64,000 bases of DNA from an uncultured Microthrixaceae bacterium (GCA_964420125.1 CAYQQQ010000019.1:1-64000), one strand, 5' to 3'; positions 5,017-39,138 are shown, counted from the stretch's first letter. Notes: generated by a model not told the origin, from the sequence alone. A program made the numbers and translations.

Positions 5017-6647
5017 GCGGATGCACCTCCACCCATCGACTCGGCCATCGACCGGTGGATGTCGGCGCGGAACCTCACCCAGCCGAAGACCAGGGCCACG
5101 AGGATCCACACCGCGACCCCGACGTTGAGCACGACGAGCTCGGGAGTCGCGGAGGTGGTGCGGCCGGCCACCAGCAGCGGCGCGAACCCGAGCATCGCCA
5201 CCAGCGGAGGCCACGCGGTGCGCAGGACCAGGCGGGGCCCGGCGACCTCCGGGGTCAACAGCGCCCCCGACGTCTCGGGGGTCGACCCGGACAGCACGCT
5301 GATGGCCGCACCGGCGACCGCTGCGGGCCCTGCGATGAGGACCCCGACCACACCCAGGGTCAGCACGTCCGCAGTCGGATCCACGGCCCAGGCCACGCCG
5401 ACGCCGACCGCGCCCGCCAGGACCATCACCAGGCAGGGCGCGACGAGGTGGCGCAGGTGGAGCTGTCCGAGGGGGACCGGGAAGCCGGCGGTGAGGGTGG
5501 GGTGGTCGATCTCCTCGGCCAGCGGCTCGGTGGCGTCCAGCGCCGCCACGAAGGTCGCCACCCCGGCCACGACGACCAGAGGTGTGGTGCCCGACCACAT
5601 CCCGCGCGCGGCCAGCGCGGCCACGGCGCACAGCACGACGACCCGGACCACTCGGATCGCCGGCCAGTGGGCGATGCTCTGGAGGTCGCGTCCGAGCACC
5701 GGCTGCCGGGAGCTGAGGAGGCGTGGCACGGGGAACCACCGGCGGTTCCTCGGGAGCTCCGAGGCGAGCTGGCGGCGCAGCAGCACGACGGAGCGGAGGT
5801 CCTGCACGGTGACCGCGAAGCGGAGCTGGCCGACCAGCTGGGTCCGCCGTCGGGCCGCCTCGATCGACAGGCCGCCGATGGCGAGGGTGCCGGCGGCGGC
5901 CAGGGAGAGGGCCACGAGGACGCCGCCGAGCCCCACGGTGCCCGAACGCAGCGGCCACAGCGCCAGCCGAGCGACCTGGGTGGTCGGGGCGTTCGGCACC
6001 CTGACCGGGGGATCTCGGAGGTAGGTGCTGACCAGCGACGCGGTGGCCCACGCCAGCAGACCCCAGGACACCGCCCAGGCGATGACGCCGGGGACACGCC
6101 GAGAGGAGGTGACCAGGGCGGCACCGAGGCCCATGGTGAGCAGGGTCGCCCCGAAGAGGGCGCCGACCGCCACCCACTCGGTGTTGGAACCCGGGAGGCG
6201 TTGGGCGGCCAGCGAGCCCGCCAGGCCGAACGCCAGAGCTCCACCGAGCGCGCCGTAGCCGAGCACCTCGATGCTGGGCCTGCGCAGCGTGGCACCACGG
6301 CTCACCGGGGCCAGGAGGAGGTGGTGGACGTCCGGCGCTTCGAGCGCCAAGGGTCCGCCGCGACCGCCGGAGCGGACACCGGCGACGAGCACCACCGCCA
6401 CGAGCAGTCCCAGCCACCCGGGAGCCTCGTCCGCCACCTGGGCCGCGGCCTGCGCCGTGAGCTCCTGGTCGCCCACCCAGCCGGCCAGCATCATGGCCAC
6501 CACAAGGCAGAACAGGGCCGTGGTGTAGACGCGGTAGGCGAGGTCCCCCCACTGGGTGTCTCCCAGGCGTCGGCGGCGACGGGTCGCACGCAGCTCGGCC
6601 ACAGCGGCCCACGTGGTCGGTTCGGGAGGGGGTTCGAGGGGGAGCAT
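5013..6647 (-). CDS. Polytopic membrane protein, putative ABC-2-type permease partner
   Basis: Long hydrophobic translation with >10 predicted TM segments; 4-nt overlap with downstream ATPase; start chosen at internal ATG 6647 (MLPLEPP...), the upstream part of the ORF is Arg-rich low complexity. Confidence 0.55.
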   Translation of the reverse strand: MLPLEPPPEPTTWAAVAELRATRRRRRLGDTQWGDLAYRVYTTALFCLVVAMMLAGWVGDQELTAQAAAQVADEAPGWLGLLVAVVLVAGVRSGGRGGPLALEAPDVHHLLLAPVSRGATLRRPSIEVLGYGALGGALAFGLAGSLAAQRLPGSNTEWVAVGALFGATLLTMGLGAALVTSSRRVPGVIAWAVSWGLLAWATASLVSTYLRDPPVRVPNAPTTQVARLALWPLRSGTVGLGGVLVALSLAAAGTLAIGGLSIEAARRRTQLVGQLRFAVTVQDLRSVVLLRRQLASELPRNRRWFPVPRLLSSRQPVLGRDLQSIAHWPAIRVVRVVVLCAVAALAARGMWSGTTPLVVVAGVATFVAALDATEPLAEEIDHPTLTAGFPVPLGQLHLRHLVAPCLVMVLAGAVGVGVAWAVDPTADVLTLGVVGVLIAGPAAVAGAAISVLSGSTPETSGALLTPEVAGPRLVLRTAWPPLVAMLGFAPLLVAGRTTSATPELVVLNVGVAVWILVALVFGWVRFRADIHRSMAESMGGGASA

Positions 6648-6733
6648 CGGCGGTCCCAGGACCGTACTTCGGCCCGGCCCCCGGCTCCACCTCCACCGCG
6701 GAGCGGCGTGAGGGTCCCGGTAGCCTGAGCCCG

Positions 6734-7489
6734 GTGACCGCCGACGAGCTCCCCGACGTGCCGCAGCCGTCGGCCAGGGCGCGGGAGCTGGCCTGCCTGA
6801 TCCAGCAGCACGTCGACCGCTTCGTCGACGACGACGCCGCCGATCCGGACGACCTCGCGGAGTTCCTCGACCGCCTGCCGCGCCAGGAGCGGGCACGGGT
6901 GGTGCGCGCTGCGTTCGAAGCCCTGCCCTCGCAGCGCCAGTGGGAGGTGCTCGAAGCCGTGTTCGGTGACGCGGAGATCGCCGAGTACCTGTGCGCGGAG
7001 CACGAGCGTCGTCGTGCCTGGCTGGCGGGGGAGGCGTCGCTGGTGTCGCTGGTGGAGGACGCCCGCTCCCGTGGCTCGATCGACCTGGCCTCGGTGGTCA
7101 GGGGTACCGAGGTGGTCCTGGGTCTGTTCCGCTCCGGCGACGTGGCCGCCGCGGCCGATCGAGGCCCGCGTTCGGACGTGTGCGCCCGGCGGGTGGTGCT
7201 GAGGGTCGCCGCCGAACACGGGGAGCTGCGCGTGATCGAGGACACGTTCAACCCGCGCGGGGGTCTGTTCGTCACCCCGGAGTACGACGCGCAGGTGTGG
7301 CAGTCCGAGCGCTGGCCCAGCCACACCCTGGTGCGGGTGGGGGCGATCGGGCCGGCAGAGGAGCTGGAGCCTGTGCTCTTCCCCGGGGCCCGACTGGATG
7401 CGGAGTACGACGCCCGGGTGCACCGGGGCCGGCTGCACCTCGGCTTCGCGCTGATCGGGGGCCACGACGTGTTCACTGGGGTGCGATGA
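6734..7489 (+). CDS. Hypothetical protein (acidic, no recognisable domain)
   Basis: Strong GC3 bias, protein-like composition, GTG start 6734, divergent from permease operon. Confidence 0.5.
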   Translation: MTADELPDVPQPSARARELACLIQQHVDRFVDDDAADPDDLAEFLDRLPRQERARVVRAAFEALPSQRQWEVLEAVFGDAEIAEYLCAEHERRRAWLAGEASLVSLVEDARSRGSIDLASVVRGTEVVLGLFRSGDVAAAADRGPRSDVCARRVVLRVAAEHGELRVIEDTFNPRGGLFVTPEYDAQVWQSERWPSHTLVRVGAIGPAEELEPVLFPGARLDAEYDARVHRGRLHLGFALIGGHDVFTGVR

Positions 7490-28641: not shown

Positions 28642-28724
28642 CGGGGAGACACTAGGGGGATCCGTGGGGCCCCTCTGACTCGCGACGGGCCTGACACCGG
28701 CGGTCGCGACCGCACCCGGCCGGG

Positions 28725-31406
28725 CTACCGCCGTTGCGGGCGAGGGCGGAAGGGGTTGCCCAGGAGCAGCAGGCTGCCGAGCAGGACGGCGCAGCCACCG
28801 ATCAGCAGCAGCACCGAGGTGCTGCCACCCGTGAACGCGAGGCCGCTGTCCGCAGAGGGGGCTTCGGTCGTCGTGGTGGTCGAGGAGCTCTGCGTGCCGG
28901 CGACCGTCGCAGGGGGTGCGCTGCTCGAGGAGCTCGAGGTCCCTGCCGGATCCGTGGTGGTGGTCGTGGACGTGCTGGAGGGGTTCGTGGCGCTCGGCGC
29001 CGCCACGGTCGTCGTCGTGGTGGACTCGGCCGTCGGGACACTCGTCGCCGGCTCGATGGCGGTCGACGTGGTGGCGGTCGACGTGGTGGTGGTGGTGGTC
29101 GTTGCCTCGGTCGTCGTCGTGGTCGTTGCCTCGGTCGTGGTGGTGGTGGGTTCGGTCGTGGTGGTCGTCGTGGTGGGTTCGGTGGTCGTGGTGGTGGTGG
29201 ACCCTGTCGGGCAGTCGGGTACCGCGCCCACGAGGTCCAGGTGGGCCATCGCCGAGGAGCTGTCGTGTCCGTCGGGGTCGGTGGCTTCCACCACCGCCAG
29301 GTTCACGATGTGCGAGGGGACGGGGCAGTCGAGCTCCACCGCCGTGCGCAGGCAGAGCTGTGGATCGGGTCCGCTGAAGGACACCTCCACCGTGGGCACA
29401 CCGGCGTCCCAGGAGCCGGTCCCGGTGGCGTTGACGGTGGCGACGAAGGTGTAGGCGGCCGTCGGCGACAGCTTCGAGAGGTCGATCTCGTCGCCGGCGG
29501 TGCTCACGTCCTCGAAGCCGGGCACCGGGTCGCCGTCCTGGAGGACGGTGAGGTGGAAGTCGTCGAGCTCGGATGCGTCGACGCCCCGGAGGCGGGCCCG
29601 CTGCCAGGCGAGCACCGGTTCTGAGGCGCAGTAGTACTGCAGCGGAACGGGGACCTCGATGGTGGAGGCCACCCGGAGGCACGGCGTGGATCCCGTCACG
29701 GGATCCAGCGTGAACAGCCAGCCCTGGTCGCCGAGGCCCCAGATGCAGCCCGCATCGTCGCGTTCGAAGCCGTACAGGGAGAGTCCTCCGGAGTGGACCT
29801 GCGGGAAGGAGCTGAGACCACCGGCGCCGAAGTCGGTGCACGGGCCGTCGGTGGCAGGGTCGTAGCAGAGGGCCCAGGAGTTGACCTTGTTGGCGTTCTG
29901 GCCCCGGGGCGAACCGACCGAGACGGGCAGGAGCAGGGTGCCCGTCGCGGTGCGCACCTCCTCAGCGGAGATGTAGACCGGTTGCTCGTAGCTGAACCCG
30001 GGGGAGACCTTCGTGGGAGCTGCAGCGATCATGGCCGCCAGGCCGGGCGGGATCAGCCCAGGAGCCAGCCCACCCGTGCTGTCGAAGCAGTGCACGGACC
30101 GGCTCTTCAGCTGCGGCACCGAGGCTGGTCCGCTGTCGCTGGAGATGATGAACGCCGGGTCCACCACCGCGAGGTTGATGCACGGGCTGCCGGGAGCGTC
30201 GGGGTTCTCCATGAGCGCGGAGACGAAGCGCAGCAGCTCCGACCCGTCGGTCCCCGGTACGGCGGGCACCGTCCACCCGGCACACGGGGTCCCGTCCGCC
30301 TCGACGCAGAAGATCCGGGTGCCGACGGCATCGAAGGGCAGCAGCGTCTCGGTCGAGCCGTAGTCCACGGTGAAGTAGGACCGGGTGCCGGCGGTCTGGG
30401 TGTGGACCCAGGCGGCTCGCCCCTCCGAGACCACTGCGTAGTCCCATGCCGGGAGTCCGACGGAGTTGAGGTCGTGCACGCCGCAGGAGCTCATCGACGC
30501 AAGGTCGAAGCAGAGGGACTGCACCGCGGAGGTTCCCGCCGTCGAGCGCGCCGCCAGCATCAGCAGGTGGTCGCCGACGCGGGAGACGCCCCCGACGGGC
30601 GCCCGGCTGATCTTGGCGGGGCCGGCCCCCGCCCTGACGGTGCCGAGGGAGTACCACCGGGATCCACATGGGGCGTCGCTGGGGAGGTCGAAGCAGAAGA
30701 GGCCCGCCTCGTCGTTGGTGGTGGCCGGCCGGTCGACCGTCGCCGGTATCCACAGGCGCTGCTGCTCGTCCACCAGCGCCCGCAGCGATCCGGGGGTGTA
30801 CAGATCCCCCGCCGCATACACCGAGAGGTCCTTGGGGTAGCCGGGACATCTCGACCCGTCCGACCGCAGGCTGCAGGTGAGATCCGCCTCCCCGATGCCG
30901 CTGTGGTGGTACACGTTGAACACTCGGTCCGCGGTGATGATCGGTATCCACCCATCGCCACCTGTCTGGGCGGTGGTGGCGTTGCGCGACGGCTCGGGCA
31001 GCTCGCTGGCCCCGCCCCGGCCGCCGGGCGGGGTGAGCGGGGAGGTGGCCCGCACGGCGGCGGTGGACGCGCCGCCCGCCCCGTCCCAGGGCCCGTCGGT
31101 GCCGGCGTCGGAGTACTCGACCTCCCAGCCCGGCGGTCCCTCCACGCTCCCGGACACGAGTTGCTGGCCGGCGCCGAGGGTGTCGGTCACCCGGAGGGTG
31201 GCCGGCAGGTCGCCGTCGTTGCCGAGGTCGACCACCCAGGAGACGGAGTCGCCGTCGGCCACCTCGGTCGGGGAGCCTGTGCGGTCGGCTGCGCCCTGCT
31301 TGGACGCGCTGGGCGCCGGCTGCGCGGCGCTGAGGGAGGACAGCGCCACCCCCAGTGCAACGGCCAGCCAGATCGCCCCCGCTCTGTGCCATCGCCCCGG
31401 CACCAT
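28725..31406 (-). CDS. Sortase-anchored cell-surface protein (LAFTG sorting signal, Thr-rich stalk)
   Basis: N-terminal signal peptide; large Cys-paired extracellular region; about 120-aa Thr/Ser-rich linker; C-terminal LAFTGG + hydrophobic segment + RPRPQRR tail (LAxTG class E sortase substrate). Confidence 0.8.
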   Translation of the reverse strand: MVPGRWHRAGAIWLAVALGVALSSLSAAQPAPSASKQGAADRTGSPTEVADGDSVSWVVDLGNDGDLPATLRVTDTLGAGQQLVSGSVEGPPGWEVEYSDAGTDGPWDGAGGASTAAVRATSPLTPPGGRGGASELPEPSRNATTAQTGGDGWIPIITADRVFNVYHHSGIGEADLTCSLRSDGSRCPGYPKDLSVYAAGDLYTPGSLRALVDEQQRLWIPATVDRPATTNDEAGLFCFDLPSDAPCGSRWYSLGTVRAGAGPAKISRAPVGGVSRVGDHLLMLAARSTAGTSAVQSLCFDLASMSSCGVHDLNSVGLPAWDYAVVSEGRAAWVHTQTAGTRSYFTVDYGSTETLLPFDAVGTRIFCVEADGTPCAGWTVPAVPGTDGSELLRFVSALMENPDAPGSPCINLAVVDPAFIISSDSGPASVPQLKSRSVHCFDSTGGLAPGLIPPGLAAMIAAAPTKVSPGFSYEQPVYISAEEVRTATGTLLLPVSVGSPRGQNANKVNSWALCYDPATDGPCTDFGAGGLSSFPQVHSGGLSLYGFERDDAGCIWGLGDQGWLFTLDPVTGSTPCLRVASTIEVPVPLQYYCASEPVLAWQRARLRGVDASELDDFHLTVLQDGDPVPGFEDVSTAGDEIDLSKLSPTAAYTFVATVNATGTGSWDAGVPTVEVSFSGPDPQLCLRTAVELDCPVPSHIVNLAVVEATDPDGHDSSSAMAHLDLVGAVPDCPTGSTTTTTTEPTTTTTTTEPTTTTTEATTTTTTEATTTTTTTSTATTSTAIEPATSVPTAESTTTTTVAAPSATNPSSTSTTTTTDPAGTSSSSSSAPPATVAGTQSSSTTTTTEAPSADSGLAFTGGSTSVLLLIGGCAVLLGSLLLLGNPFRPRPQRR
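29079..29204 (-). repeat. Degenerate tandem codon repeat encoding TTTTTTEP/TTTTTEA units
   Basis: Repeated ggtcgttgcctcggtcgt / ggtggtggtgggttcggt units on the + strand within the surface protein gene. Confidence 0.5.
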
Positions 31407-31464
31407 GGCCGCACAGCTTGCCCGTTGATGAACTCCGGGTCAATCGATGGCATCTCGAGGTGCG

Positions 31465-31869
31465 TCAGGCACCCTCGAGCGACGTCGGCGGAGGGTCGTC
31501 CGCGCCGGCCGCGTGCACGTCGCCGGAGGACGCCTCGGACATCCTCTGATGGACCCAGGCCACGCTGCCGGGATCGCCCTGCGATTCCGACCACCCGGAG
31601 AACGCACCCTCGACGCGGTCCAGGCCGTGGATGACGCCCAGCACCTCGACGGTCACCTCGTCGGCAGGGAGGTCGGGCACGAGCGTGTCGCCCAGGGGGT
31701 CCATGACCAACGGCTCGCCGGCCTCCCGCATCAGGTAGACCTCGCCGGTGTCCTCCACCCAGTTGAGCTCCCAGCGCACTCCACCGGGATCGGTCCAGTC
31801 GCTGCCGAAGGAGTACTCCTTGGATGCTCGGCGGGCCGGGTTGGCGTCGTAGAAGTGCTCGATGTCCAC
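31465..31869 (-). CDS. Hypothetical protein (134 aa, acidic)
   Basis: Protein-like composition, GC3 bias; MDIEHFYDANPARRASKEYSFGSDWTDPGG... Confidence 0.5.
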   Translation of the reverse strand: MDIEHFYDANPARRASKEYSFGSDWTDPGGVRWELNWVEDTGEVYLMREAGEPLVMDPLGDTLVPDLPADEVTVEVLGVIHGLDRVEGAFSGWSESQGDPGSVAWVHQRMSEASSGDVHAAGADDPPPTSLEGA

Positions 31870-31941
31870 CCCGACATCCTGCCATCCCCCGAGGCGCCGC
31901 CGGTGCAGGCGGTCGTCGTGCGCCGTCGGAGGGCCCGACCG

Positions 31942-34350
31942 TCACACGAGCTCGGGTTCCCGCTCCTCGCCGCGCTCGTCGCCCCGGTGCGGATCCAGCT
32001 CCTGGGCCAGGATCTCGTCGACCTCGGCCGTCGTGCCCTCGACGTTGACGTGGGGCAGGATCCGCTCCAGCCACCGGGGCAGCCACCAGTTCCGCGCACC
32101 GAGCAGCTCCATGGTCGCCGGCACGAGCAGGAGCCGCACGATGGTGGCATCGATGAGCACGGCGGCGGCCAGGCCGAAGCCGAAGATCTTCACCGCACGG
32201 TCGGTCTCCAGCATGAAGCTGCCGAACACGAAGACCATGATCGCCGCTGCGGCGCTGATCACCTTGGCGGTGGCGGCAAGACCGTCGGCCACCGACGTGT
32301 TGGCGTCACCGGTTCGCAGCCACTCTTCCCGGATCCGGGAGAGCAGGAAGACCTCGTAGTCCATGGAGAGGCCGAACACGATGGCGAAGAGCATCATCGG
32401 CAGGAAGGGCTCCACCGGAGCAGCGGAGATCCCGAACGCGGGGATCACGCTTCCCCAGCCCCATTGGAACACGGCGACGGTGAGCCCGTAGGCGGCACCG
32501 ATCGACAGCAGGTTCATGATGACCGCCTTCACCGGGACCAAGAGGGACCGGAACACGACCATCAGGAGCAGGAACGACAACCCGAGCACGGCGACGAAGA
32601 ACAACGGGAGCCGTGTGGCCAGGTAGTCCGAGATGTCCACGGTGACGGCGACGAACCCGGTCAACAGGACGTCGAGCCCGGAGTCGTCGGTGGCGGCGGG
32701 AAGCACGTCGTCGCGGAGGTGGTGGACGAGCTCGGTGGTGGCCTCGTCCTGGGGCGAGGTCGTGGGGATCACGCGCCACATCACCGCGGTGGCCTCGGCC
32801 GGTGGGTCGGAGTTGACCAGCTCCAGGGTGTTGGGGATGGCCGGGGTGACCTCGGCCACGCCGGGAGTGGCCGCCAGGGCGTCGCTGACGGGCTGCGCGA
32901 CGGCGGGGTCTGCGCCCTCGGGGAGCGTGGCGATCAGCAGGAGCGGACCGTTGTGGCCGGGGCCGAAGGCGGCGGCCAAGAGGTCGTAGGCTTGGCGGCT
33001 GGTGGAGTCCTCGGGCAGGTTGCCGTCGTCACCGAAGCCGAATCGCAGGCTGAACATGGGGATCGCCAGACCGAGCAGGACGACGGAGCTGATGATCGTC
33101 ACGGTCCACGGACGGGCCTGGACCAGGCGGCTCCAGCGATAGGCGAAGGTCTCGCGCAGCGGCTTGTCCTTCGTCGTGGGAACGGTCTTCGAGAGGGGCG
33201 TGGAGAACTTGAACAGCGCCGAGAAGACCGACACGACCACCACGAGCGCGGCCACGACCAGCGCCACCATGGACACCGCCGGCAGGGCGAGGCCGATGCC
33301 GATCAGCGCCACGGCGACGCCGCCGGCGAGCAGCAGGCCTCTCCAACGCGTGACCTCGATGTGGCGGCCTGCGAAGCCGAGCAGCGCCGGAAGGAGCGTG
33401 AGCGAGGCCACCATGGTGGCGGCCACCGTGACGGCCGAACCCACGGCCAGTCCGTTCACGAAGCCGATCCGCATGATCAGCATGCCGAGCAACGAGATCA
33501 CCACGGTGAGGCCGGCGAAGAGCACGGCTCTCCCCGAGGTGTCGATGGCGATCCCCACGGCCTCCTCGACGGGGTGCCCGGCGCGCAGCTGCTCCCGATA
33601 CCGGGTCACGATGAACAGGGCGTAGTCGATGCCCACACCCAGGCCGATCATGATGCCGAGGGTGCTGGTCGACTCGGGCATCGTCATGAGGTTCGAGGCC
33701 AGGAGGACGATGGTGGTTCCGGCGCCGATCCCACCGAGCGCGACGAGCACGGGCAATCCCATGGCCATGACGGAGCCGAAGGCGAGGATCAGGATGAAGA
33801 TGGCGAAGGCCAGGCCGAGCATCTCGGAGTCCGGCTGCTCGAAGGTGCTGAAGAGCTCACCTCCGTAGTCGATGTCCGTTCCCTCGATCGTGGGGGCGAA
33901 GCCCTTCACCTCGGTGCCGAAGCCCTCCATGGAGTCGCGGTTGGGTTCTCCGGCGAGCTCGATGTCGGCATAGGCGACGTGTCCGGCGTAGCGGCCCCTG
34001 GAGGAGATCTGGGTGGCGCCGGTCGGAGCGAAGGGGGAGCGGACGGTCGAGCCGTCGATGCTGTCGACCTCCGCCAGGAACTCCTCGAGCTCCGCCACCA
34101 GCGCAGCGTTGGAGATGGGCCCATCGGAGCGGAAGACGATCGTGCCCCGGGCACCGGTGCCGACGCCGTCGAAGTTGGCATCGAAGATGTCCCCGCCCCT
34201 CGTGCTCTCGAGCTCGGGGAGATCGAAGGAGCTGCGGATGTCGCTGCCGGCGGTCTGCGCCGCCACTCCCAGCCCGATCAGCACGGCGAGCCAGATCGCC
34301 ACCACGACCCAACGACGCGTGGCGCACCAGGTTCCCATTCGAGCGAACAT
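31942..34350 (-). CDS. MMPL-family RND transporter
   Basis: Two 6-TM bundles with large extracytoplasmic loops, MMPL topology; GGGAG RBS before ATG 34350. Confidence 0.85.
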   Translation of the reverse strand: MFARMGTWCATRRWVVVAIWLAVLIGLGVAAQTAGSDIRSSFDLPELESTRGGDIFDANFDGVGTGARGTIVFRSDGPISNAALVAELEEFLAEVDSIDGSTVRSPFAPTGATQISSRGRYAGHVAYADIELAGEPNRDSMEGFGTEVKGFAPTIEGTDIDYGGELFSTFEQPDSEMLGLAFAIFILILAFGSVMAMGLPVLVALGGIGAGTTIVLLASNLMTMPESTSTLGIMIGLGVGIDYALFIVTRYREQLRAGHPVEEAVGIAIDTSGRAVLFAGLTVVISLLGMLIMRIGFVNGLAVGSAVTVAATMVASLTLLPALLGFAGRHIEVTRWRGLLLAGGVAVALIGIGLALPAVSMVALVVAALVVVVSVFSALFKFSTPLSKTVPTTKDKPLRETFAYRWSRLVQARPWTVTIISSVVLLGLAIPMFSLRFGFGDDGNLPEDSTSRQAYDLLAAAFGPGHNGPLLLIATLPEGADPAVAQPVSDALAATPGVAEVTPAIPNTLELVNSDPPAEATAVMWRVIPTTSPQDEATTELVHHLRDDVLPAATDDSGLDVLLTGFVAVTVDISDYLATRLPLFFVAVLGLSFLLLMVVFRSLLVPVKAVIMNLLSIGAAYGLTVAVFQWGWGSVIPAFGISAAPVEPFLPMMLFAIVFGLSMDYEVFLLSRIREEWLRTGDANTSVADGLAATAKVISAAAAIMVFVFGSFMLETDRAVKIFGFGLAAAVLIDATIVRLLLVPATMELLGARNWWLPRWLERILPHVNVEGTTAEVDEILAQELDPHRGDERGEEREPELV

Positions 34351-34520
34351 GCAGCTCCCGTCAGCGGACGTCGGCGGGCCGCGGGCAGCTCTCCACCCGC
34401 CGGCGCGCCACCGGTCAGTCTGGTGAACCGCGGCGCATCGTCGCAACGAGAGCGCGCAGTGACATCTGGCTCACCGCCGACGACCGTGCTCCTCCGGCCG
34501 CTCACCAGAGGGTGCGCTGC

Positions 34521-35891
34521 TCACACCGGGTGGGCGATTGGCAGCGAGATCTCGACGCGTAGACCGCCTCCCGGGTTGTCCAGCAGCTCGAGATCACCAC
34601 CGGACGCGGCCACGAGCTCGTCGACGATCGCCAGGCCCAGTCCGCTGCCATGGCTGTCGGACCCGCGCCAGAAGCGCTCGAGGGCGGCGGCCTTGGCGCC
34701 GTCGTCGAGGCCGGGGCCGTGATCGGCCACGGTGAGCACCACGCGGTGCTCGTGGTGGTCAAGCCCGATGTCCACGACGGATCCGCGGGGCGCGACGCGG
34801 ATGGCGTTGTCGAGGAGGTTGTCGAGGATCTGCTCGAGGCCGGAGGGGACGACGAGGGCCCACGTGGGGCCTCCGGGGAGCCGGGCACGCAGCTCGATGC
34901 CGTGCTCCTCGGCCACGGCCGACCAGATGTCGGCGCGGTGGGTGACGACCTCGCTCAGCTCGGTCGGTGCGGCGGCGGGCGGCCCCTCCGCCCGGGCGAG
35001 CCGGAGCAGGTCCTCCACGAGCATGCCCAGACGCTCGCTCTCGGCCGTCGCGGCGTCGAGGTCGACGGGGTCGACGCCCTCCGGCGTCCGCGCGGCCTGC
35101 TCCAGGTTCTCGAGCCGGAGTCGCAGCGCCGTGAGCGGTGTGCGCAGCTGGTGCGAGGCGTCGGCGACGAAGCTGCGCTGCTCTGCCATCATGTGCTCGA
35201 GTCGGGCGGCCATGTCGTTGAGGGTGTGCCAGAGCACGTCGATCTCGACAGGGGCGTCGGGGTCGACGGGGCCGACCCGGAGGTCGCCGGCGGCGAACCG
35301 ACTCGCGGTGGCCTCCATCCGGCGCAGCGGTCGGGTGATCCATCGAGCGATGGTCCAACCGATCCCGGTCACCGCTGCCAGCACGGCGATCGCCACGAGG
35401 ACCAGGCCGGCCCAGAACCGCCGGACTCGCTCGGTCACCTCGTGGCGGTCGAAGGTGACCCGCACCGCGCCCAGCACGCTGGAACCGGAGCCGACAGGTA
35501 CCGCGACGTACAGGAGGTCGGTCTCGAGGGTGTCGCTGCGACGCGTGCCGCTGGAGCGACTGCCCCGGAGCGCTTCGGCGACCTCCGGCCGCGTGGAGAG
35601 GTCCCGGGGCACCGACCCGTCGGTGTCCACCAACGACGTGCCCGCAGCATCGGTCACCACCACCCTGGCGCCGGTGCGCTCCGCGTAGCGTCGAGCTGCC
35701 GCAGGATCCGGCGCGGCGCCCTGCTCCAGGGCATCCTCGTAGACCATCGCCAGCACCGACGCGTCACCGGTGAGGGCGTTCGTGAGCCGCTCGTCCTCGC
35801 GCTGCGCGTAGAAGATCCCGAGGGGCACCTCGAGGACCACCAGCACCAGGGAGGTCAAGGTGAGGAAGCTGAGGAGGATGCGGCGGGTCAC
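34521..35891 (-). CDS. Sensor histidine kinase
   Basis: Two TM helices, HAMP, HisKA H-box ADASHQLRTPLTAL, HATPase N/G boxes; GTGA overlap with response-regulator stop. Confidence 0.8.
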   Translation of the reverse strand: MTRRILLSFLTLTSLVLVVLEVPLGIFYAQREDERLTNALTGDASVLAMVYEDALEQGAAPDPAAARRYAERTGARVVVTDAAGTSLVDTDGSVPRDLSTRPEVAEALRGSRSSGTRRSDTLETDLLYVAVPVGSGSSVLGAVRVTFDRHEVTERVRRFWAGLVLVAIAVLAAVTGIGWTIARWITRPLRRMEATASRFAAGDLRVGPVDPDAPVEIDVLWHTLNDMAARLEHMMAEQRSFVADASHQLRTPLTALRLRLENLEQAARTPEGVDPVDLDAATAESERLGMLVEDLLRLARAEGPPAAAPTELSEVVTHRADIWSAVAEEHGIELRARLPGGPTWALVVPSGLEQILDNLLDNAIRVAPRGSVVDIGLDHHEHRVVLTVADHGPGLDDGAKAAALERFWRGSDSHGSGLGLAIVDELVAASGGDLELLDNPGGGLRVEISLPIAHPV

Positions 35892-36541
35892 GAGGCCAGC
35901 CGGTAGCCGACGCCGCGGACCGTCTCGATCAGCTCCGGGGACAGCTTGCGTCGCAGCGAGGCGATGTGGACGTCCAGGGTCTTGGTGGAGCCCCACCAGT
36001 CGTGGTCCCACACGTCGCGCAGCAGCTCCTCACGGGTGACGACGGCCCCGGGGTCGGTGGCCAGGGCGACCAGCAGGTCGTACTCCTTGGGGGTGAGGGC
36101 CACCTGGCGGTCGTCCAGCTCCACAGTGCGGGTGCGGGTGTCGATGCGCAGGGGAGGGTGCTCGATGACCTCGGCGCGGCCGTGTGCGGGCGTGGAGCTG
36201 CGACGCAGCACCGCCCGCACCCGCGCCACCAGCTCCCTGAAGCCGAACGGCTTGACGATGTAGTCGTCGGCGCCGCTCTCCAGCAGTCGGACCCGATCCG
36301 TCTCGTCGCCGCGGGCGGTCACCACGATGATCGGGACGTCCGCCTCGGATCGCAGCACGCGGCAGACCGAGTGTCCGTCGATGTCGGGCAGTCCGAGATC
36401 CAACAGGACGAGGTCGTAGTCGCTCGCAGCCAGCGCATCGGCACCGGTTGCCACGGCCAGCACCTCGAAGCCCTCCCGGCGCAGGCCGGTCACCAGCGGT
36501 GCGGAGATCGACGGGTCGTCTTCGACGACGAGCAGTCGCAT
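35888..36541 (-). CDS. OmpR-family response regulator
   Basis: MRLLVVEDD receiver domain, DLGLPDIDG, winged-helix C-terminus GVGYRL. Confidence 0.9.
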   Translation of the reverse strand: MRLLVVEDDPSISAPLVTGLRREGFEVLAVATGADALAASDYDLVLLDLGLPDIDGHSVCRVLRSEADVPIIVVTARGDETDRVRLLESGADDYIVKPFGFRELVARVRAVLRRSSTPAHGRAEVIEHPPLRIDTRTRTVELDDRQVALTPKEYDLLVALATDPGAVVTREELLRDVWDHDWWGSTKTLDVHIASLRRKLSPELIETVRGVGYRLAS

Positions 36542-36580: not shown

Positions 36581-36599
36581 CCTTTGCCAAGCCTTTACC
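36581..36599. promoter_or_regulatory. Direct repeat CCTTTGCC-n3-CCTTTACC (11-bp phasing) in the divergent promoter between the RR-HK operon and the ApbE operon
   Basis: Two 8-bp repeats one helical turn apart, the geometry used by OmpR/PhoB-type regulators; 40-58 bp upstream of the RR start codon. Confidence 0.3.
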
Positions 36600-36606
36600 C
36601 CGCTCT

Positions 36607-36635
36607 GGGGTACCCCTCACGCGGGGCCCCGTACC
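36607..36635. promoter_or_regulatory. Perfect palindrome GGGGTACCCC followed by GGGGCCCCGTACC
   Basis: Two GC-rich self-complementary motifs sharing GTACC, in the same divergent intergenic region. Confidence 0.25.
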
Positions 36636-36697
36636 TTCGAGGAGCAGAGCCGGAGAACCTCCCGAGATCCACCACCAACCGGTTCGGAAAGGACGTC

Positions 36698-37270
36698 ATG
36701 ATCTCCAGAACCGCACTCGTGACGGCCGCTGCGGCCACCGCGGTGGTCCTGGCCGGGTCGTTCGCCATGGGGGCCAACCTCGGGGTGTTCGACTCCCCGA
36801 ACGACGCCGCCGCGGTCGGACAGCTCGACCTCGCAGACGCCCAGGCCGCACCCACCGCCACCGGACCCGGCGACGCCGGCTCCGGTGAGATCGCCTCCTG
36901 GAGCACCCAGGACTACGACGTGGACGGCGCCGGCATCGTCTCGCTGCGGTGGCAGGACGGGGCGATCGAGGTCGCCCGTGCCCAGCCGGCCGACGGCTGG
37001 AGCGCAACGGTGCAGCCGTCGGGCAGCGCCGAGGCCGCGACGGTGGACTTCACCGACGCGGACGGCACGGTGCACCGCTTCGGCGCCCAGCTGCACGCCG
37101 ACGGCTCGGTGCAGGCCGCGGTGGTGACGCTCCCACCCGCTGCCGCCGCTGGCGGCGGCTCGTCCGAGGGCGGAGAGCGCGAAGGCGACGAGCACGAAGG
37201 CGACGAGCACGAGTCCAGGGAGCACGAGGCCGAGGAGCACGAGTACGAAGGTGGTGAGGACGATGACTGA
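36698..37270 (+). CDS. Secreted protein with acidic His/Glu-rich C-terminal tail
   Basis: RBS GGAAAGGA, signal peptide MISRTALVTAAAATAVVLAGSFAMGAN; C-terminus EGDEHEGDEHESREHEAEEHEYEGGEDDD encoded by a short tandem repeat. Confidence 0.6.
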   Translation: MISRTALVTAAAATAVVLAGSFAMGANLGVFDSPNDAAAVGQLDLADAQAAPTATGPGDAGSGEIASWSTQDYDVDGAGIVSLRWQDGAIEVARAQPADGWSATVQPSGSAEAATVDFTDADGTVHRFGAQLHADGSVQAAVVTLPPAAAAGGGSSEGGEREGDEHEGDEHESREHEAEEHEYEGGEDDD

Positions 37271-37604
37271 GGCAGCCCGCACTGCCGCCCGGAACCCCGG
37301 TGGTCGCCGAGCCCCGCACCCGGCACAGGGGGCGCGCATCGCCGCGGCGGGCTTCGGCACCGCCGCCACCTTGGTGCTCGTCGGGGCGATGTCGATGGAC
37401 GAGTCGGCCCGGAGCGGCCTCCCGACGCCGGATGCCACCTCGAGTGTGATCATCCTGCCTCCCCGAGGTGCCGCGTCGACCACTGGCGGGAGCACCCCGC
37501 CGGTGGTCCTTCGCAGCGAACCCTCCACGAGGGTGGTCTCCGGCGGTCCCACGGCCGCCCCGCAGCCGCTGCGTGTCGACGCCACCACGTCGGGGAGCCG
37601 TTGA
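37251..37604 (+). CDS. Small hypothetical membrane-anchored protein
   Basis: One predicted TM helix (IAAAGFGTAATLVLVGAM); overlaps previous gene by 20 nt and next gene by 4 nt; moderate GC3 bias. Confidence 0.35.
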   Translation: MVRTMTEAARTAARNPGGRRAPHPAQGARIAAAGFGTAATLVLVGAMSMDESARSGLPTPDATSSVIILPPRGAASTTGGSTPPVVLRSEPSTRVVSGGPTAAPQPLRVDATTSGSR

Positions 37605-38479
37605 TGGACGAGGCGGTGCGCCGGCTCCGTGGCCGGGCGATGGCCAGCTCTGTGGAGGTCGTGGTGGTGGACGGCCCCCACCAGGCCGAGCGGTGGGCCG
37701 CAGCGCGCATCGACCAGCTGGAGCAGCGATGGAGCCGCTTCCTGCCGCACAGCGAGATCACCCGACTCAACGCCGCAGCCGGCGCGACGGTCTCGGTGCA
37801 CCCCGACACGAGTTGCCTCCTCTCGGCGATGTTGCAGGGATGGCACCTCGGCGGAGCCCGGTTCGATCCCCGCGAAGCCGGCGATGGCACCGGGGCACCG
37901 TCGGCCATCCGGCCGCTCGATGACGACCTGACGCTCGACCAGCTCGAGGGGACCGCCTGTCTGGCGCCAGGGGTCACCCTCGATCCGGGAGCGATCGGCA
38001 AGGGCTTGGCAGCAGACCTCGTCGTGCAGGAGCTGCGGCGCATGGGGTGCCGGGGTGCGCTGGTGGGCATCGGCGGCGACCTCAGCGCGTCAGGAGCGCC
38101 ACCGGAGGGGGAGCGCTGGCGCGTCGAGGTGGAACCCGTCCTCGGTGACGTCGACGAGCCGCCGCTCCGGTTGGACATCGAGGGTGGGGGAGTCGCCACC
38201 TCCAGCGTCCTGCACCGCCACGGCGAGCTGGCCGGCCTGCCGCGGCAGGACCACCGTGCTCCCCGCGCAAGGGTGCCGGTCGGGCCCGCGGACCTGCTCA
38301 GCGCGACCGTGGTGGCTCGATCGGGATGGCTGGCGGAGGTGCACGCCACGGCCGCCCTGCTCGCCGGGGAGTCCGGCGCCGTCCGGCACCTGAGAGCTCA
38401 CGGCCTCACCGGTGTGCTCCAGACGTCGGAACAGGTCCGAGTGGTCGAGCTCGACTCCAGCGGGTCACGGTCGTGTTGA
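37601..38479 (+). CDS. apbE: FAD:protein FMN transferase (ApbE family)
   Basis: ApbE core LDPGAIGKGLAADL, GALVGIGGDL; TTG/ATG start 37601/37604. Confidence 0.8.
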   Translation: MMDEAVRRLRGRAMASSVEVVVVDGPHQAERWAAARIDQLEQRWSRFLPHSEITRLNAAAGATVSVHPDTSCLLSAMLQGWHLGGARFDPREAGDGTGAPSAIRPLDDDLTLDQLEGTACLAPGVTLDPGAIGKGLAADLVVQELRRMGCRGALVGIGGDLSASGAPPEGERWRVEVEPVLGDVDEPPLRLDIEGGGVATSSVLHRHGELAGLPRQDHRAPRARVPVGPADLLSATVVARSGWLAEVHATAALLAGESGAVRHLRAHGLTGVLQTSEQVRVVELDSSGSRSC

Positions 38480-39060
38480 GCTCTCAGCTCTGGTGGTTCC
38501 TCGGTCGTGCCTCGGGGATCGTGGGATGGTGGATGCTCACCGCCTCGGTGCTGATCGGGATCGTCGTCGCGAGCGACCTGTTCTGGCAGCGGCGCCGCCC
38601 GAAGTGGCTGCTGGACCTGCACCGCGGCCTGGCGGGGCTCACGCTGGCCTTCGTGGGGCTGCACCTGCTGGCGCTCCTCGGCGACAGCTACCTGGAGCTC
38701 GACCTCGCGGACCTCCTGGTGCCGTTCGCCGCGTCGTGGCGCCGAGGGGCGGTTGGGCTGGGTGTCCTCGGCTTCTGGGGTCTGGTGGCCATCCAGACGA
38801 CATCGGCGATGATGCACCGCCTGCCTCGTCGCTGGTGGCGGGCCGTGCACCTCGGCAGCTACCCGGTGTTCGCCATGGTGGCCCTGCACGGAACCCTGGC
38901 GGGCACCGACGCCGCCCGTGGTTGGTACGTCGCCGGCACGACGCTGGCGCTGGCCGCGGTGATGGCGGGTGGGATCTACCGGATCCTGCAGCGTCGCTCC
39001 CGCCAAGCGGCTCTGGCGGATCGGGGGCGGCTCGGTCGAACGGCGGGCACCGGGAGGTGA
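38473..39060 (+). CDS. Ferric-reductase-like transmembrane heme-binding protein (MsrQ/YedZ-like)
   Basis: 6 TM helices with paired His residues (LDLHRGLAGLTLAFVGLHLL; MMHRLPRRWWRAVHLGSYPVFAMVALHG) characteristic of the FRD bis-heme domain; GTG start overlaps ApbE stop. Confidence 0.65.
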   Translation: MLSSQLWWFLGRASGIVGWWMLTASVLIGIVVASDLFWQRRRPKWLLDLHRGLAGLTLAFVGLHLLALLGDSYLELDLADLLVPFAASWRRGAVGLGVLGFWGLVAIQTTSAMMHRLPRRWWRAVHLGSYPVFAMVALHGTLAGTDAARGWYVAGTTLALAAVMAGGIYRILQRRSRQAALADRGRLGRTAGTGR

Positions 39061-39138
39061 CCGGGTGAGTTCGACCCGGGAGGGGCCCCGGCGTGGTCGG
39101 GTTGCAGCATCGGGGGACGTCGTCGATGGGCGGCGCGC

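Follow-up and report, generated by a model that had tools for sequence, protein, structure and literature searches.

A domain-less, tag-like candidate substrate for ApbE in a four-gene heme and flavin operon of an uncultured Microthrixaceae bacterium

ApbE-dependent flavinylation is a major route for the export of electrons from bacterial cells, and an apbE gene with no flavin-binding partner beside it raises the question of which protein it modifies. Such a gene is found in a 64-kb stretch of DNA (hereafter the window; G+C content of about 72%) from an uncultured Microthrixaceae bacterium (GCA_964420125.1, CAYQQQ010000019.1:1-64000). It is part of an operon of four translationally coupled genes, g1, g2, apbE and a gene for a ferric-reductase-like (FRD) membrane protein, all of whose reported open reading frames (ORFs) were found in the window. 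The initial annotation of this DNA saw no flavinylation motif in the operon and suggested that the substrate might be encoded elsewhere in the genome. Indeed, no six-frame ORF of the window contains the strict motif D-x-x-[ST]-G-A-[ST], but the near-match DATTSGSR that ends g2 was overlooked; this ending is conserved in the g2 family and canonical in some relatives, which makes a substrate within the operon probable. From the sequence comparisons described below, g2 appears to be the most likely ApbE substrate, flavinylated at Ser112, a reading to which we would give about an even chance.

The conservation of the locus was studied with a scan of species-representative genomes based on an ApbE alignment, which provided 274 relatives. 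The best 80 of these 274, all at most 45% identical, come mostly from metagenome-assembled genomes (MAGs) of Acidimicrobiia, Thermoleophilia and 'Actinomycetes', plus Amycolatopsis acididurans, and their gene order is unchanged. The operon is also present in the cultured Iamia sp. SCSIO 61187. Exact-protein look-ups showed the same order, a histidine kinase (HK) and response regulator (RR) facing g1-g2-apbE-FRD, on metagenome contigs whose g1 is down to 34% identical. Gene content was then counted in 86 non-redundant loci using hidden Markov models built from our own alignments. The FRD gene lies directly 3' of apbE in 78 of them, across three classes; g1 is found upstream in 53, a divergent RR in 56 (including all 53 loci with g1) and a divergent HK in 57. 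About 30 loci have the g2-apbE-FRD core with neither g1 nor an adjacent RR. The gene arrangement is thus strongly conserved in related genomes. No recurrent family other than RR, HK, g1, g2, ApbE and FRD was recovered by an all-against-all clustering of the flanking ORFs, a comparison that is noisy from alternative-frame ORFs.

The g2 protein has no Pfam or NCBIfam family even at E<=10, and the same is true of four divergent relatives. None of the flavin-binding domains FMN_bind, DUF2271, DUF3570, NqrB/RnfD, Flavodoxin_4 and FMN_red was detected in it with these libraries, and g1 does not belong to any Pfam or NCBIfam family either, so that the absence of an FMN_bind domain from the proteins annotated at 36698 and 37251 is confirmed. 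Protein databases contain five close relatives of g2, and a profile search of 1.8 billion representatives found 16; at the DNA level, a g2-like ORF almost always adjoins apbE, in the slot usually occupied by an FMN_bind gene. The members of this family have a strongly basic N-terminal tail (often R-R-x-H-P-A-x-x-x-R) and a single hydrophobic helix that is conserved. A tail of 32-136 residues, rich in Pro, Ala, Ser and Thr, leads to the C-terminal motif [ST]-x-[GA]-S, which is separated from the stop codon by 0-3 residues. In the window, the basic tail is RRAPHPAQGAR, the conserved transmembrane helix is IAAAGFGTAATLVLVG and the tether is likewise rich in Pro, Ala, Ser and Thr. Two starts may be considered for the gene, GTG 37251 (20-nt overlap with g1) and ATG 37263 (8-nt overlap). 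The homologue alignment and an independent gene call favor the latter; the coupled operon of the initial annotation is upheld, probably with an overlap of 8 nt instead of 20.

The C-terminal motif is present in 66 of the 69 automatically detected g2 ORFs, versus 3.8% of all ORFs in these loci that are 50 residues or longer, and in 78 of the 86 loci once ORFs found by inspection are added. If the putative flavinylated residue is numbered 0, the DATTSGSR of the window agrees with the strict motif at -6, -3 and 0, and differs from it at -2 and -1 (Ser-Gly). Residues D106, A107, T109, G111, S112 and R113 are invariant in the g2 alignment (A1), and all 79 motif-bearing ORFs have [ST] at -3 and Ser/Thr at 0. 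Some loci have canonical endings: DTSSGAS-stop in L072 and L083, and ATSGAS-stop in L086. In L072 (1058-2293) and L083 (6460-6864), which come from Microthrixaceae/Acidimicrobiales MAGs, the small partner gene follows the FRD gene, ends in GGADTSSGAS-stop and carries a good signal for twin-arginine translocation (Tat), VSRRAVTIGAAALAAAGG (V-S-R-R-A-V-T-I-G-A-A-A-L-A), which makes export by the Tat route plausible for this partner. In an Ilumatobacteraceae locus (L054; 4999 and 6624-7046), a g2-like gene precedes apbE (STHGS-stop) and a second one comes after the FRD gene (TKTKGS-stop), a hint that tethered partners may vary in number. Finally, in Amycolatopsis g2 is favored as the substrate because the FRD protein has its own NAD/FAD/Fer2 donor and needs an outer acceptor, for which a g2-like gene is the only one available.

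The enzyme itself matches PF02424 (E=8e-33, 114.5 bits for a Pfam cut-off of 25.6), and its profile recovers 5mgy (E=1e-29) and 12 other ApbE entries from the PDB. Of the catalytic and ligand motifs of the family (GKG-x-A-x-D, GGD, ATSG, H-x-x-D-P-x-T-G and A-D-x-x-x-T), most are kept, as GKGLAAD, GGD, ATSS and AEVHAT, with Glu replacing Asp, and the protein is predicted from its sequence to transfer FMN to a Ser or Thr of a target protein. Translation may start at TTG 37601 (4-nt overlap with g2) or at ATG 37604 (1-nt overlap), where one base is shared with the g2 stop codon. In all relatives, the protein starts about 11 residues ahead of the first strand of the fold and of the conserved Met-Ala-Ser. 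No signal peptide or lipobox was found in any locus, the aligned relatives have no hydrophobic N-terminal extension, and the in-frame sequence upstream of the window gene contains neither a start codon nor a hydrophobic stretch. Since there is no export signal upstream or in the relatives, this ApbE is predicted to be cytosolic. The idea of an extracytosolic flavin and heme module is consequently insecure as far as the transferase is concerned.

The FRD protein, whose gene starts at GTG 38473 and overlaps apbE by 7 nt, has a marginal match to Ferric_reduct (PF01794; E=6.5e-7, 29.9 bits for a Pfam cut-off of 28). The domain is carried by all the homologues listed except P0109. With both PF02424 and PF01794 above their cut-offs, the ApbE and predicted bis-heme FRD module was correctly recognized in the initial annotation. 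Two His pairs, H50/H64 and H126/H139, are invariant in alignments of 5 and 38 sequences; they are spaced by 13-14 residues and located on helices 2 and 4 (44-70 and 119-143) of an AlphaFold2 (AF2) model. This model (pLDDT 91) has five long transmembrane helices and a short one at 78-82, at odds with the six helices previously assigned to the protein, and its best Foldseek matches are STEAP1/2, the transmembrane domain of NOX5 and cytochrome b561. There is no dehydrogenase domain. According to sequence and model, the protein is predicted to be a bis-heme b transmembrane electron conduit with a minimal five-helix fold, and its charge distribution suggests an N-out, C-in topology. The Amycolatopsis homologue is fused to FAD_binding_6, NAD_binding_1 and Fer2 domains. 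The corresponding locus (L071, 4442-7390 of Amycolatopsis acididurans NZ_JAAXLS010000002.1) encodes, on the same strand, a kinase, a g2-like protein ending in TTSRAS-stop, ApbE and the FRD-dehydrogenase fusion, and has no FMN_bind gene.

Several observations weigh against the flavinylation of g2. The motif departs from the canonical one: position -1 is Gly in 72 of the 79 motif-bearing ORFs and the canonical Ala in only 7, position -2 is variable rather than Gly, and Asp is found at -6 in a minority. In 43 loci, which represent the commonest arrangement, the motif encloses the apbE start codon ([AG]TG), set in the +1 frame; to take one case, ACC-AGT-GGC-AGT-CGC-TGA becomes ..A-GTG-GCA-GTC.. 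when it is read as apbE. Because of this embedded start, the -2 codon of these loci is always N[AG]T (Ser, His, Arg, Asn or Gly) and the -1 codon starts with G, whereas position -4 may be part of the Shine-Dalgarno sequence. Part of the motif conservation is therefore imposed at the nucleotide level. In addition, g2 lacks a folded flavin-binding domain, and its tail is predicted by the positive-inside rule to be outside, whereas ApbE has no export signal. A twin-arginine pair occurs in 55 of the 69 family members (G-G-R-R-A-P-H-P in the window), but only L072 and L083 match the Tat consensus ([ST]-R-R-x-F-L-K ahead of a moderately hydrophobic segment) beyond this pair. Lastly, the ApbE of the window reads DHRAPRAR at 38249-38272, where most relatives have HH-x-[IL]-D-P-x-T(-G). 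The difference is due to several substitutions and not to a frameshift, and the Asp is also missing from a few distant relatives (Ala in L081; Asn in L019, L048 and L087).

One may then ask whether g2 is flavinylated at all. It could instead be a structural or assembly subunit, either a sixth helix for the FRD protein or a docking partner for ApbE, the motif arising in large part from the start codon and ribosome-binding site of apbE and the true substrate being elsewhere in the genome or the FRD protein itself. Besides the embedded start and its restricted -2 codons, the departure from the canonical G-A at -2/-1 and the conflict between a cytosolic ApbE and an external tail, this alternative would agree with the best-conserved part of g2 being the juxtamembrane segment and transmembrane helix, not the tail, and with the five modeled helices of FRD, compared to six in STEAP and NOX. 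Nevertheless, the [ST] at -3, for which several codons are used, and the Ser at 0, of the AGY class in 74 of 76 serines, fall outside the start codon and are not explained by the overlap; retention of the AGY class is expected because such a residue cannot go through a non-Ser intermediate. The motif is also kept in 31 loci with other junctions, where the -2 codons are free, and in 5 g2-like ORFs 3' of the FRD gene, which nothing overlaps. Moreover, canonical DTSSGAS-stop and ATSGAS-stop variants exist, the C-terminal tails of FRD and ApbE are variable, neither FRD nor g1 has a conserved [ST]GA[ST], and the strict motif is found nowhere in the window. Considering both sides, we regard the subunit explanation as the main, though rather unlikely, alternative.

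Other origins or locations of the motif were considered and discarded. A programmed frameshift or readthrough that would fuse g2, as a membrane anchor, to ApbE is disfavored by the frame offset, which differs among loci (+1, +2 or 0), and by the lack of a conserved slippery site. A purely Shine-Dalgarno motif does not fit the commonest arrangement, in which the conserved Met comes 17 nt after the stop codon, nor the preservation of the motif where no gene follows. The FRD end RTAGTGR and the ApbE end DSSGSRSC resemble [ST]-x-G-[ST] sites, but both tails vary among relatives and these are chance matches. As for g1, it has no conserved [ST]GA[ST]-like site, its PSGSAEA stretch being variable.

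The flavinylation of g2 would have to be reconciled with its topology. The net charge of the regions flanking the helix has a median of +5 on the N-terminal side versus 0 on the C-terminal side, and the former exceeds the latter in 68 of 69 members, so an N-in, C-out orientation is predicted. In the mechanism that we propose, g2 would be anchored N-in by its conserved helix, probably packed against the heme protein, and its disordered Pro/Ala/Thr/Ser tether of 30-130 residues would end in the [ST]-x-[GA]-Ser tag. FMN would be joined through a phosphoester bond to the Ser of the tag (Ser112 in the window) by the ApbE of the operon. The simplest way out of the topological conflict would be that a cytosolic ApbE with direct access to FAD modifies the tail before its translocation. 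Electrons donated by quinol or by a reductant in the cytosol would reach the tethered flavin via the two hemes, the donor in Amycolatopsis being the fused FAD/NAD/2Fe-2S module. More speculatively, the flavin could reduce a metal, Fe(III) being the likeliest, or some other acceptor carried on the acidic, His-rich g1 tail, with the HK sensing the corresponding signal and the RR activating the operon via a direct repeat. Taken in full, g2 could then represent a new class of ApbE substrates devoid of a folded flavin domain, a natural 'flavin-tag' that receives FMN on its C-terminal Ser from a cytosolic ApbE prior to export and acts as a swinging-arm one-electron shuttle from the outer heme of the five-helix FRD protein to g1, an acidic and His-rich partner that would bind metal, in the cell envelope of Actinomycetota. 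This complete version is tentative, and we consider it somewhat improbable.

The g1 protein begins with an unusually conserved hydrophobic segment, either a signal peptide or a signal anchor. Its residues 68-146 are confidently predicted to form a seven-strand beta domain without relatives in the PDB, and its C-terminal 40-150 residues are acidic and His-rich. The g1 of Iamia is made up of the signal segment and the acidic tail only, and the tail is therefore the constant feature of g1. Its ending, HEYEGGEDDD-stop, is kept in homologues down to 23% identity. Its codons, GGTGGTGAGGACGATGACTGA (37241-37270), also hold the Shine-Dalgarno sequence and ATG of g2, so that the 8-nt overlap and translational coupling of both genes are themselves kept. 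In Iamia sp. SCSIO 61187 (L092, 8546-9277 of CP050948.1), a gene for a VIT1-family ferrous iron transporter is convergent with the FRD gene. From the composition of the tail, this neighbor and the association of MsrQ-like clusters with VIT1, we infer that the tail may bind metal and that the system might hence be a metal reductase; that this role depends on composition, one VIT1 neighbor and an analogy counts against this part of the proposal. A general link to VIT1 was discarded, as the gene was seen only in Iamia and not in the other 86 loci.

The operon is transcribed divergently from the RR and HK genes, and the Pfam domains on the minus strand confirm the OmpR-type pair reported initially. 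The RR has receiver and winged-helix domains and the HK has HisKA and HATPase_c domains; their NCBIfam matches are generic and miss every equivalog cut-off. The direct repeat with a phase of about 11 bp that had been noticed between both transcription units is real: TTTGCCAAGCCTTTACC (36583-36599) has one match in the window for 0.01 expected and is found, with up to 3 mismatches, in 35 of the 53 RR-g1 spacers versus about 1.2% of control segments. It is kept in a five-locus alignment, and the distant locus L088 has an exact copy. The CGTACCTTCG block, which contains TACCTT, is invariant alongside it in alignment A5. A scan with the sigma-70 consensus found no promoter match, and the role of TACCTT as a -10 element is inferred. 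In L008 (2560-2590), the g1 ATG lies 6 nt after TACCTT, which suggests a leaderless mRNA; in the window, g1 has a leader of about 60 nt with the ribosome-binding site GGAAAGGA. The RR probably binds the repeat as its operator, judging from these patterns, and the module is probably under two-component control. The two GC palindromes described in the same region do exist, but they are not conserved even in close relatives.

The strict association of g1 with the two-component genes (53/53) could also indicate that the operon is mainly a sensory accessory, in which g1, together with g2 and the heme protein, would signal to the HK the redox state or the availability of metal at the membrane, and not act as a bulk reductase. 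The hydrophobic N-terminus of g1 is unusually conserved for a cleaved signal peptide, and the HK has a sizeable extracytoplasmic loop. Furthermore, the g2 tails of loci with g1 have an additional P-x-x-L-x-A-x-P-x-V motif that is mostly absent from loci without g1 (Fisher p of about 3e-4, for an imperfect pattern), which hints at a contact between g1 and g2. Yet, the core occurs without g1 and an adjacent RR in about 30 loci and so has a function independent of them, the full NAD(P)H dehydrogenase module of Amycolatopsis is typical of a catalytic reductase, and the conserved operator upstream of g1 fits the ordinary regulation of an operon by its RR. A primarily sensory role consequently seems quite unlikely.

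That the FRD protein is an ordinary MsrQ serving an MsrP encoded elsewhere, its proximity to apbE being coincidental, is very improbable, for although relatives are annotated by JGI as YedZ/MsrQ heme-binding subunits and a dehydrogenase domain is missing, as in E. coli MsrQ, the FRD gene shares 7 nt with apbE and comes right after it in 78 of 86 loci from three classes, no gene for a molybdopterin oxidoreductase (MsrP-type molybdoenzyme) was found with Pfam within 10 kb on either side of the operon, and the flanks provide no further recurrent partner family. The initial annotation was thus right not to equate the module with plain MsrQ. More generally, the E. coli MsrPQ (YedYZ) system shares with it a small heme b membrane protein of the FRD family, but lacks the coupling to apbE and has six helices instead of the five of our model.

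The closest known systems are the MsrQ-like clusters, a mainly actinobacterial class of 1797 clusters that typically contain apbE and an FMN_bind gene (Meheust 2021, eLife, PMC8238504). Many of them have NOX-like dehydrogenase fusions, and an association with VIT1 has been published (PMC8238504). The operon resembles them in the PF01794 bis-heme protein next to apbE, the predominance of Actinobacteria, the proposed path from cytosol or membrane through the hemes to a flavinylated acceptor, the fused NAD-binding domains (here in Amycolatopsis) and the VIT1 neighbors (here in Iamia). That class was delimited by a PF01794 gene within five genes of apbE or of an FMN_bind gene, and the FRD gene here overlaps apbE. 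In contrast, there is no FMN_bind, DUF2271 or DUF3570 gene but the single-pass, C-terminally tagged g2; ApbE has no signal peptide or lipobox; and the acidic His-rich g1 and a dedicated two-component system are added. The 2021 survey retained only clusters with a predicted signal peptide on ApbE or a known substrate domain (PMC8238504), and the present cluster falls outside its set because its ApbE lacks such a peptide and the three further domains of the survey's definition are missing. The same survey pointed out that orphan apbE genes imply undiscovered substrates; in it, 4% of the apbE-encoding genomes (670) had no identified substrate (PMC8238504). We read the region as a variant, probably under two-component regulation, of the MsrQ-like, ApbE-associated electron-transfer systems of Actinomycetota; that g2 takes the place of the FMN_bind protein in it seems to us an evenly balanced proposition. 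The module has new features but is a variant of a published class, not a wholly unknown system.

The unusual location of the tag has partial precedents. In FMN_red proteins, the flavin is attached to a C-terminal extension that is unstructured (Huang et al. 2024, PMC11334425), and a seven-residue motif, engineered as the 'flavin-tag', is sufficient for flavinylation and works best at a terminus (reviewed in PMC12052999). As in g2, the motif lies on an unstructured C-terminal extension or at a terminus, but these cases involve a folded flavin domain or an artificial construct and the canonical [ST]GA[ST], whereas g2 has no detectable domain and usually [ST]-x-G-S. Regarding the compartment, a cytosolic ApbE from Klebsiella pneumoniae flavinylates a soluble fumarate reductase (PMC12052999). 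Neither enzyme has a secretion signal and both would act in the cytoplasm (a prediction here), but the Klebsiella substrate is soluble and has an FMN_bind domain, while g2 is a membrane protein, and the end that would be modified is predicted to lie outside. The eukaryotic and bacterial ferric reductases of the NOX, STEAP and FRE families provide the best structural matches of the FRD protein and have the same transmembrane fold, with two His pairs for two stacked hemes, and the Amycolatopsis relative even has a FAD/NAD module like that of NOX; however, the FRD protein of the window has no cytosolic dehydrogenase domain, has one helix fewer and is tied to the flavinylation machinery. What is novel here is the domain-less, tag-like candidate substrate, the signal-less ApbE and the acidic His-rich partner. 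Our literature searches found no description of the present variant, nor of flavinylation in the cytosol followed by export.

If the proposal is correct, the substrate repertoire of ApbE would be extended to a domain-less tag with a relaxed C-terminal motif, [ST]-x-G-S, and a covalent flavoprotein could be formed in the cytoplasm before export, making a FAD exporter unnecessary. It would also offer a cheap experimental handle: two small genes and a gel band that fluoresces under UV light. The analysis provides a functional lead for two unnamed protein families and for an orphan two-component system with its operator. The g1 and g2 families and the two-component system are widespread in Acidimicrobiia and Thermoleophilia, that is, in environmental, mostly uncultured lineages.

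Table 1. Features of the apbE locus, in window coordinates
Feature	Coordinates	Strand	Basis or remarks
HK	34521..35891	-	Pfam HAMP, HisKA, HATPase_c; extracytoplasmic loop with weak sCache-like match
OmpR/PhoB-family RR, divergent from the operon	35888..36541	-	Pfam Response_reg and Trans_reg_C
Direct repeat TTTGCC-N5-CTTTACC, probable RR operator	36583..36599	+	Overlaps the -35 region of the operon promoter
TACCTT, -10-like hexamer (TAnnnT)	36632..36637	+	Within the conserved CGTACCTTCG block
g1	36698..37270	+	Hydrophobic N-terminal segment, beta domain, acidic His/Glu/Asp-rich tail
g2, candidate ApbE substrate, 113 aa, single-pass	37263..37604	+	ORF and homologue alignment
g2 C-terminal motif D-A-T-T-S-G-S-R	37578..37601	+	Predicted FMN site Ser112, codon 37596-37598
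apbE, FAD:protein FMN transferase without signal peptide or lipobox	37604..38479	+	PF02424
FRD gene, MsrQ/YedZ-like membrane protein	38473..39060	+	PF01794

Some minor features of the window deserve mention. No Rfam family (riboswitches or other RNAs) was matched anywhere in it. The HK gene is adjoined by an MMPL transporter gene, which was rejected as a member of the system since it is adjacent in only 7 of the 86 loci. Two proteins of 916 and 134 aa without Pfam or NCBIfam matches adjoin this transporter (28656-31869, minus strand); the trio recurs in L004 and L009, and has no link to the apbE module in more distant loci. Long antisense ORFs, such as one of 1091 aa opposite the MMPL gene (31447-34722, plus strand), are the usual artifact of a G+C content of 72% and not genes. 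Finally, the 78-nt gap between the convergent FRD and phosphofructokinase genes contains an imperfect GC-rich palindrome, CGACCCGGGAGGGGCCCCGGCGTGGTCG (39072-39099), which, though without a T-run, may be a bidirectional terminator.

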